In this document: one piece after another, positions 41,970 to 42,779 of the stretch
Layout: every line of letters begins with the position of its first letter
Position numbering within the stretch: the stretch's first letter is position 1
Source of the DNA: Shigella phage sb1
Sequence record: PQ666539
DNA length: 64,000 nt
Strand: one strand, 5' to 3'
Position numbers and translations under genes: made by a program
The notes under the pieces: model-generated
Databases searched by the model: none
The model's input: the letters and a program-made list of their open reading frames with translations, nothing else
Told to the model about the DNA's origin: nothing

Positions 41970-42779
41970 ATGCTTAAAGAACAACTGAGTGCCGAAGCGC
42001 AAAAAATTGATGCTTCCGTTGCTCTTGATAGTATTTTCGAATAAGTTAATATTTCTACGGAAGCAAAAGAAACTTTCGGCAATGTATTCGAAGCTACCGT
42101 CAAGCAGCACGCCGTTAAATTAGCTGAATCTCATATCGCTAAAATTGCTGAAAAAGCAGAAGAAGAAGTAGAAAAAAATAAAGAAGAAGCCGAAGAAAAA
42201 GCTGAGAAGAAAATCGCTGAGCAAGCTTCTAAATTCATCGACCATCTTGCGAAAGAATGGCTCGATGAAAATAAATTAGCAGTTGATAAAGGCATCAAAG
42301 CCGAACTGTTTTAATCCATGCTTGGTGGATTAAAAGAGCTCTTTGTTGAACACAACGTTGTTGTTCCAGAAGAATCAGTTGATGTTGTAGCTGAAATGGA
42401 AGAAGAGCTGCAAGAACATAAAGAAGAATCAGCTCGTCTGTTCGAAGAACTCAATAAGCGCGACGCATATATTAATTATGTGCAGCTTGAAGTGGCATTG
42501 AGCGAAAGTACTAAAGATCTGACTGAGTCTCAAAAAGAAAAAGTCTCTGCTCTGGTCGAAGGTATGGATTATTCAGATGCATTCTCAAGTAAATTGAGTG
42601 CCATCGTAGAAATGGTGAAGAAATCTAATAAAGATGAAAGCACTATTACTGAGGGTATAAATACTCCTGATACTGAAGCAGCCGGACTGAATTTCGTCAC
42701 TGAAGCTGTAGAAGATAAAGCTGCACCTGGTGCAGAAGATATTGTAAGTGTATATGCGAAAGTCGCATCTCGTTTCTAA
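41970..42779 (+). CDS. 22: gp22 prohead scaffold core protein, interrupted by in-frame TAA at 42042-42044 and 42312-42314
   Basis: MLKEQLSAEAQKIDAS... matches T4 gp22; 270 codons in one frame. Confidence 0.85.

Follow-up and report, generated by a model that had tools for sequence, protein, structure and literature searches.

Gene content of the window

The window, i.e. the whole 64,000-nt stretch of Shigella phage sb1 DNA (PQ666539) that was analysed, covers the late-gene region of a Tequatrovirus, leading from the regB side through a tRNA cluster and genes 57-1-3-2-4-53-5-6...-24, hoc, uvsW, uvsY and 25-54 to alt. Many phage records are collinear with the window, the best of them being only ~97% identical to it. 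Gene 22, which encodes the prohead scaffold core protein gp22, lies at 41970-42779 on the plus strand, and projection of the annotated coding sequences of phage KNP5, together with the T4 annotation, places it between gene 21 (prohead protease) and gene 23 (major capsid protein).

Several features of the surrounding region differ among relatives. Downstream of gp18 and ahead of gp19, 37724-38380 (plus strand) forms an open reading frame of 218 amino acids with a TTG start, for which Pfam gives no match. KNP5 and UGKSEcP2 lack it, and pSs-1, ZCEC15 and IsaacDaniel have an annotated ‘hypothetical protein’ of 618 nt in the same place; the frame may be a mobile insertion. The possibility that this frame and the preceding one (36356-37723) are two pieces of a split gp18 was considered and rejected, as gp18 occupies 35744-37723 and is broken at 36125, and 37724-38380 is a separate gene. 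Gp67 (40637-40876) is 240 nt long here compared to 261 nt in KNP5, a length polymorphism of an acidic repeat that is common to other relatives, and gene 24.3 (47039-47253) differs from that of KNP5 by 1 nt in length, possibly through a frameshift error, its annotation being inconsistent among relatives. The hoc product (47349-48767, minus strand) has 472 amino acids, as in Killian, IsaacDaniel and pSs-1, compared to 376 in T4, and varies or is fragmented in KNP5 and OE5505; such length differences are normal copy-number variation of Ig domains. Dense patches of substitutions of mixed type, private to the window, occur at 40457-40634 (the end of gp20), 41538-41684 (gp21) and 43805-43970 (gp23); these resemble short tracts acquired by mosaic recombination from a Tequatrovirus lineage outside the panel of relatives used here, unrelated to the G:C→T:A changes described below.

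Two in-frame stop codons in gene 22

Gene 22 was described in an earlier note on this DNA as a single frame of 270 codons that carries two in-frame TAA codons, and this description holds. One frame of 810 nt runs from the ATG at 41970 to the TAA at 42777-42779, giving 269 sense positions and a stop. TAA occupies codon 25 (42042-42044) and codon 115 (42312-42314) of this frame, and the peptides that the note gives next to these codons are also correct. The same note held that only the last third of the gene survives among the open reading frames; the surviving frame of 153 amino acids (42318-42779, plus strand), whose start is the natural internal Met117 immediately after the second TAA, is in fact the last 57% of gp22.

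The identity of the gene, likewise proposed earlier from the sequence, is established by a profile match, by alignment and by synteny. When translated with the two stops masked as X, it matches the Pfam family PF25623 (T4_CASP, T4-like capsid assembly scaffolding protein) with 286.9 bits against a cut-off of 27 (E=1.8e-85), over profile positions 2-244 of 247. Alignment to T4 gp22 (NC_000866), which like the product here has 269 amino acids and is encoded in the same place between genes 21 and 23, is gapless at 96% identity and shows no change of frame, which places both stops genuinely in frame. The uninterrupted frame of ~269 codons that is expected of the gp22 family is thus absent here, with TAA at codons 25 and 115. 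A real gene is expected to contain no in-frame stops at all, so that two exceed chance, but the excess extends over the whole window and is not specific to this gene.

Both stops can be traced to single substitutions on the plus strand. The first arose from an ancestral TCA (Ser) by C→A at 42043, opposite Ser25 of T4 gp22, and the second from an ancestral GAA (Glu) by G→T at 42312, opposite Glu115. At 42043 all nine panel relatives have C, and the codon is TCA in 22/22 sequences that match the flanks; at 42312 all nine have G, and the codon is GAA in 12/12 flank-matching sequences. Exact 38-mers across each TAA had no match in IMG/VR, and that across the first site had none in GTDB genomes and JGI metagenomes either. 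Look-ups of the exact proteins, namely the 153-residue gp22 fragment and gp21, likewise gave no match. Four further G:C→T:A changes private to the window fall in gene 22 between 42057 and 42487 (plus strand), all of them missense: P30T (42057), T38N (42082), A99D (42265) and R173L (42487), at residues which are invariant in T4, KNP5, pSs-1 and OE5505. Together with S25* and E115* they make up six of the nine private changes in the gene, and it is these two stops and four replacements, found in this record alone, that set it apart from T4 gp22.

Premature stops and a frameshift in other genes

Premature stops across the window were located by projecting the annotated coding sequences of KNP5 and pSs-1 onto it. 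This revealed 26 substitution-derived in-frame stops in ~24 genes, most of them essential: 18 TAA, 5 TGA and 3 TAG, each triplet being verified. Among the genes that can be named are those for gp3, 5, 6, 9, 10, 16, 17 (two stops), 18, 22 (two), 23, 27 (two), 29, 48 and 51, as well as uvsY, denV and alt.

On the plus strand, stops are present at 17212-26191 in gp5 (17212, TAA), gp6 (18418, TAA), gp9 (25107, TAA) and gp10 (26189, TAA), and at 33858-36127 in gp16 (33858, TAA), gp17 (34975, TGA; 35461, TAA) and gp18 (36125, TAA), where the ends of the open reading frames agree with them. The major capsid protein gp23 is interrupted at codon 274 by a change of TTA to TAA (43617-43619), and the segment 51075-57686 contains stops in uvsW.1 (51075, TAA), gp51 (53609, TAA), gp27 (54634, TGA; 55075, TAA), gp29 (55897, TGA) and gp48 (57684, TAA). 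On the minus strand, the region 3072-13506 holds stops in denV (3072-3074, TGA), in gp3 (13504-13506, TAG) in three hypothetical genes (6039-6041, TGA; 6353-6355, TAA; 7753-7755, TAA) and in one more of these (9066-9068, TAG), and the region 52141-61451 holds those in uvsY (52141-52143, TAA), a further hypothetical gene (59586-59588, TAA) and alt (61449-61451, TAG).

In addition, gp12, the short tail fibre (27783-29332, plus strand), carries a frameshift at 28270-28290, where loss of 1 nt in a CCC run has turned AAAAACCCAAAAA into AAAAACCAAAAA; this was seen both as a switch of frame at residues 164-168 in a tblastn comparison and in the DNA alignment. An automatic scan for private indels returned a near-zero count and missed this deletion, so that the count is a lower bound. 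A few of the stops also lie outside the G:C→T:A class (TTA→TAA in gp23, and TAT→TAG) and, together with the deletion in gp12, they indicate that more than one type of error is present. No plaque-forming T4-like phage could exist with such a load.

Spectrum and selection of the private substitutions

A substitution was considered private where the window differs from all of the 6-9 panel relatives and these agree among themselves. This definition gives 476 private substitutions; G→T and C→A together account for 210 of them and affect 0.91% of G/C positions, or ~1 per 110. The right-hand part of the window contains 73 G→T and 69 C→A, compared to 12 T→G and 8 A→C. In four ordinary relatives, treated as controls, a stretch of 21 kb holds only 2-6 G:C→T:A changes that are private, compared to 68 for the window. 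The changes are evenly spread, with a near-constant rate of 3.2 and 3.5 per kb in two parts of the window, and are strand-symmetric; no sequence motif was found around them, the frequencies of flanking bases being equal to background. Oxidative artefacts are reportedly enriched at CCG>CAG, a preference that was not seen at the G:C→T:A sites of the window.

The G:C→T:A changes in coding sequence comprise 14 synonymous, 150 missense and 22 nonsense substitutions, which is what would be expected of changes falling at random on the G/C sites of the inferred ancestral genes (8.7%, 79.1% and 12.2%, or ~16/147/23; chi-square p=0.84), and their distribution over codon positions 1, 2 and 3 is 81/65/40. 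The private transitions in the same genes behave quite differently, with 105 synonymous against 30 missense changes, mostly in third positions, which is the signature of normal purifying selection. The coexistence of selected transitions and neutral G:C→T:A changes indicates that a single mutational process, itself free of selection, was superimposed on a natural genome under selection. The kinds of stop follow the same pattern: the G:C→T:A class gave rise to 17 TAA, 3 TGA and 2 TAG, where 70%, 20% and 10% are expected from codon usage, and TAA dominates because GAA is by far the commonest codon that can be converted. The suggestion, implicit in the earlier note, that gene 22 is peculiar therefore finds no support, as both of its TAA codons belong to the ~210 unselected changes found throughout the window, alongside stops in so many other genes.

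The tRNA cluster

Ten tRNA genes (Arg, Asn, Tyr, Met, Thr, Ser, Pro, Gly, Leu and Gln) lie at 9561-10388 on the minus strand and contain seven of the private G:C→T:A changes. The mutated tRNAs have lost Rfam score relative to pSs-1 (Met by 15.6 bits, Leu by 10.1, Thr by 9.0, Ser by 3.3 and Arg by 2.1), whereas those without private changes score the same as in pSs-1, and none has gained. A search of the 64-kb window for a suppressor tRNA found none among the ten, all of which have sense anticodons; the anticodon ‘taa’ of the Leu tRNA decodes UUA, not UAA, and this gene is not an ochre suppressor. The tRNA-His of Ec_YwIITB1 and UGKSEcP2 is missing from the cluster, and the Tyr tRNA, as called, falls 3 nt short of its counterparts in the relatives and bears private G→T changes at 9722 and 9725, on its 3' edge.

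Signatures in the sb2 and sb4 records

Shigella phages sb2 (PQ666540) and sb4 (PQ666542), which are among the closest relatives over the first 21 kb, themselves carry 22 and 43 private G:C→T:A changes, respectively, over ~21-22 kb. The sb4 record also has 56 A↔T changes, and its endolysin, gp6 and gp7 are annotated as split genes, and both records probably have the same kind of quality problem as the window. Across the first 21 kb, 64 G:C→T:A changes are unique to the window, 40 to sb4 and 21 to sb2, with only 1-4 shared per combination, whereas ordinary substitutions are readily shared, e.g. 22 common to the window and sb2. That the G:C→T:A changes are almost never shared indicates that the process acted independently on each record, which fits an artefact of the laboratory or pipeline and not descent.

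Origin of the gene 22 stops

The explanation that best accommodates these observations, to which we assign a probability of about 0.87, is that the window is an ordinary Tequatrovirus segment whose recorded sequence contains ~210 spurious G:C→T:A substitutions and at least one single-base deletion, the two TAA codons of gene 22 being two of these substitutions. The class of the changes, their rate, their lack of selection and their independence from the relatives are direct observations; judged by the spectrum, the physical cause would lie in sequencing, template damage or consensus calling, and would be 8-oxoguanine-like. On an oxidised template, a polymerase would pair A with 8-oxoguanine during extraction, shearing or amplification, thereby giving G→T and C→A, and where coverage is low or calling permissive, such errors could then enter the consensus. 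Costello et al. 2013 (PMC3616734) documented C>A/G>T transversions from 8-oxoguanine formed in library preparation as an artefact of low allele fraction. The changes described here resemble that artefact in their nearly exclusive class, in being free of selection and in arising independently between samples, but differ from it in that they stand in the consensus; as an oxidative artefact normally has a low allele fraction, its presence there implies low coverage or poor calling. Another substitution-type error process of the same spectrum, be it wet-lab or computational, may be responsible instead, and its consequence for gene 22 would be identical.

The DNA of T-even phages, Tequatroviruses included, contains glucosylated hydroxymethylcytosine. 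Glycosylated hydroxymethylcytosine is known to impair nanopore basecalling, for which no G→T spectrum was given (PMC12838424). Modification-dependent nanopore miscalls on such DNA were considered as the source of the changes and rejected, since a motif would be expected of them and none was found in the flanking bases. A raw long-read consensus is also made less likely by how few indels there are.

A biological reading of the stops would be that TAA, and possibly other stop codons, are read as an amino acid through recoding, suppression or programmed readthrough, so that full-length gp22 is made; the only point in its favour is that the frame, otherwise perfectly conserved, continues past both codons. 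We regard it as so improbable that it can be set aside, and it was rejected on several grounds. All three stop codons occur in frame, none is singled out, and their ratio is that of random G:C→T:A change, as is the total number of stops. No single decoding rule can be drawn from them either, as TAA stands opposite Glu, Ser, Leu and Tyr, TGA opposite Gly and Cys, and TAG opposite Glu, Tyr and Ser. TAA, TGA and TAG moreover still end genes at the conserved positions of the relatives, TAA being the terminator of most genes, at positions as in pSs-1, and of gene 22 itself; no anticodon that reads a stop exists in the ten tRNAs; and no relative has a stop at either site in gene 22. Recoding would also leave the accompanying missense changes and the damage to the tRNAs without explanation. 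Some crAss-like and Lak phages, in which TAG is reassigned to Gln or TGA to Trp, likewise have in-frame stops in otherwise conserved late structural genes, but in these phages one codon stands for one amino acid, a suppressor tRNA is usually present and the reassigned codon is avoided as a terminator, and all three features are absent here. The classical amber and ochre mutants of T4 gene 22 share with this record a premature stop in that gene, which in non-suppressing hosts blocks formation of the prohead core. Laboratory mutants of this kind, however, bear a single defined nonsense codon or a few, and suppressor hosts support their growth, whereas no single suppressor would rescue the 26 stops of three kinds found here.

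The changes could also have been truly present in the molecule or molecules that were sequenced, for instance as a non-viable, oxidised or mutator-generated genome, through amplification of a single molecule or particle, or in a defective T4-like element long resident in a host of the mutY/mutM type, and we consider this unlikely. The spectrum of 8-oxoguanine is the same in vivo, in mutators deficient in MutM/MutY, as it is in vitro, unselected changes fit a dead genome equally well, and the scarcity of indels is also compatible with this origin. However, a genome with ~26 nonsense changes and a frameshift in its essential genes could not be propagated, nor could these changes become a population consensus, and the purifying selection still evident in the private transitions speaks against a general decay under relaxed selection. 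Host flanks are absent, the genes follow the order of lytic Tequatroviruses throughout, and a search of 5,426 complete E. coli genomes and of plasmids gave no similar sequence. The independent and unshared copies of the signature in sb2 and sb4 again point to the laboratory or pipeline and not to a lineage. If the mutations were real, the gene 22 stops would physically exist, albeit in a dead genome. Alteration of the sequence after assembly, i.e. in-silico noise, file corruption or faulty polishing or consensus building that turned G into T and C into A without any wet-lab cause, appears somewhat less probable still. It would account for changes that are free of context, even, strand-symmetric and equally frequent in both halves (3.2-3.5 per kb), and for the lack of any copy of the sequence in the collections searched; simulated noise, however, would normally use all types of substitution, and the occurrence of the same class at a lower level in two GenBank records of one laboratory indicates a real-world process. 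The stops in gene 22 are equally non-biological under this explanation. A very improbable variant of the view that the mutations are real is hypermutation of guanine in a T4-like genome in vivo, for instance by an oxidative burst or a new kind of host defence that strikes guanine or glucosyl-hydroxymethylcytosine pairs, with the dead genome then being sequenced; the milder signatures of sb2 and sb4 would in that case be due to shared biology instead of a shared laboratory.

Implications for phage sequence records

With spurious substitutions in the recorded sequence as the preferred explanation, the lesson of this locus is one of data quality. Records of this kind mislead scans for in-frame stops, recoding and pseudogenes, and in such a record gene callers split about two dozen essential genes. 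A cheap test separates error from recoding, namely to divide the private substitutions by class and to compare their synonymous, missense and nonsense fractions with random expectation; the same test flags at least two public GenBank records, those of Shigella phages sb2 and sb4, with a milder defect. For the phage itself, the stops in gene 22 are not read through, recoded or suppressed; the gene encodes an ordinary gp22 with nothing new about it, which is almost certainly intact at 269 residues in the living phage.
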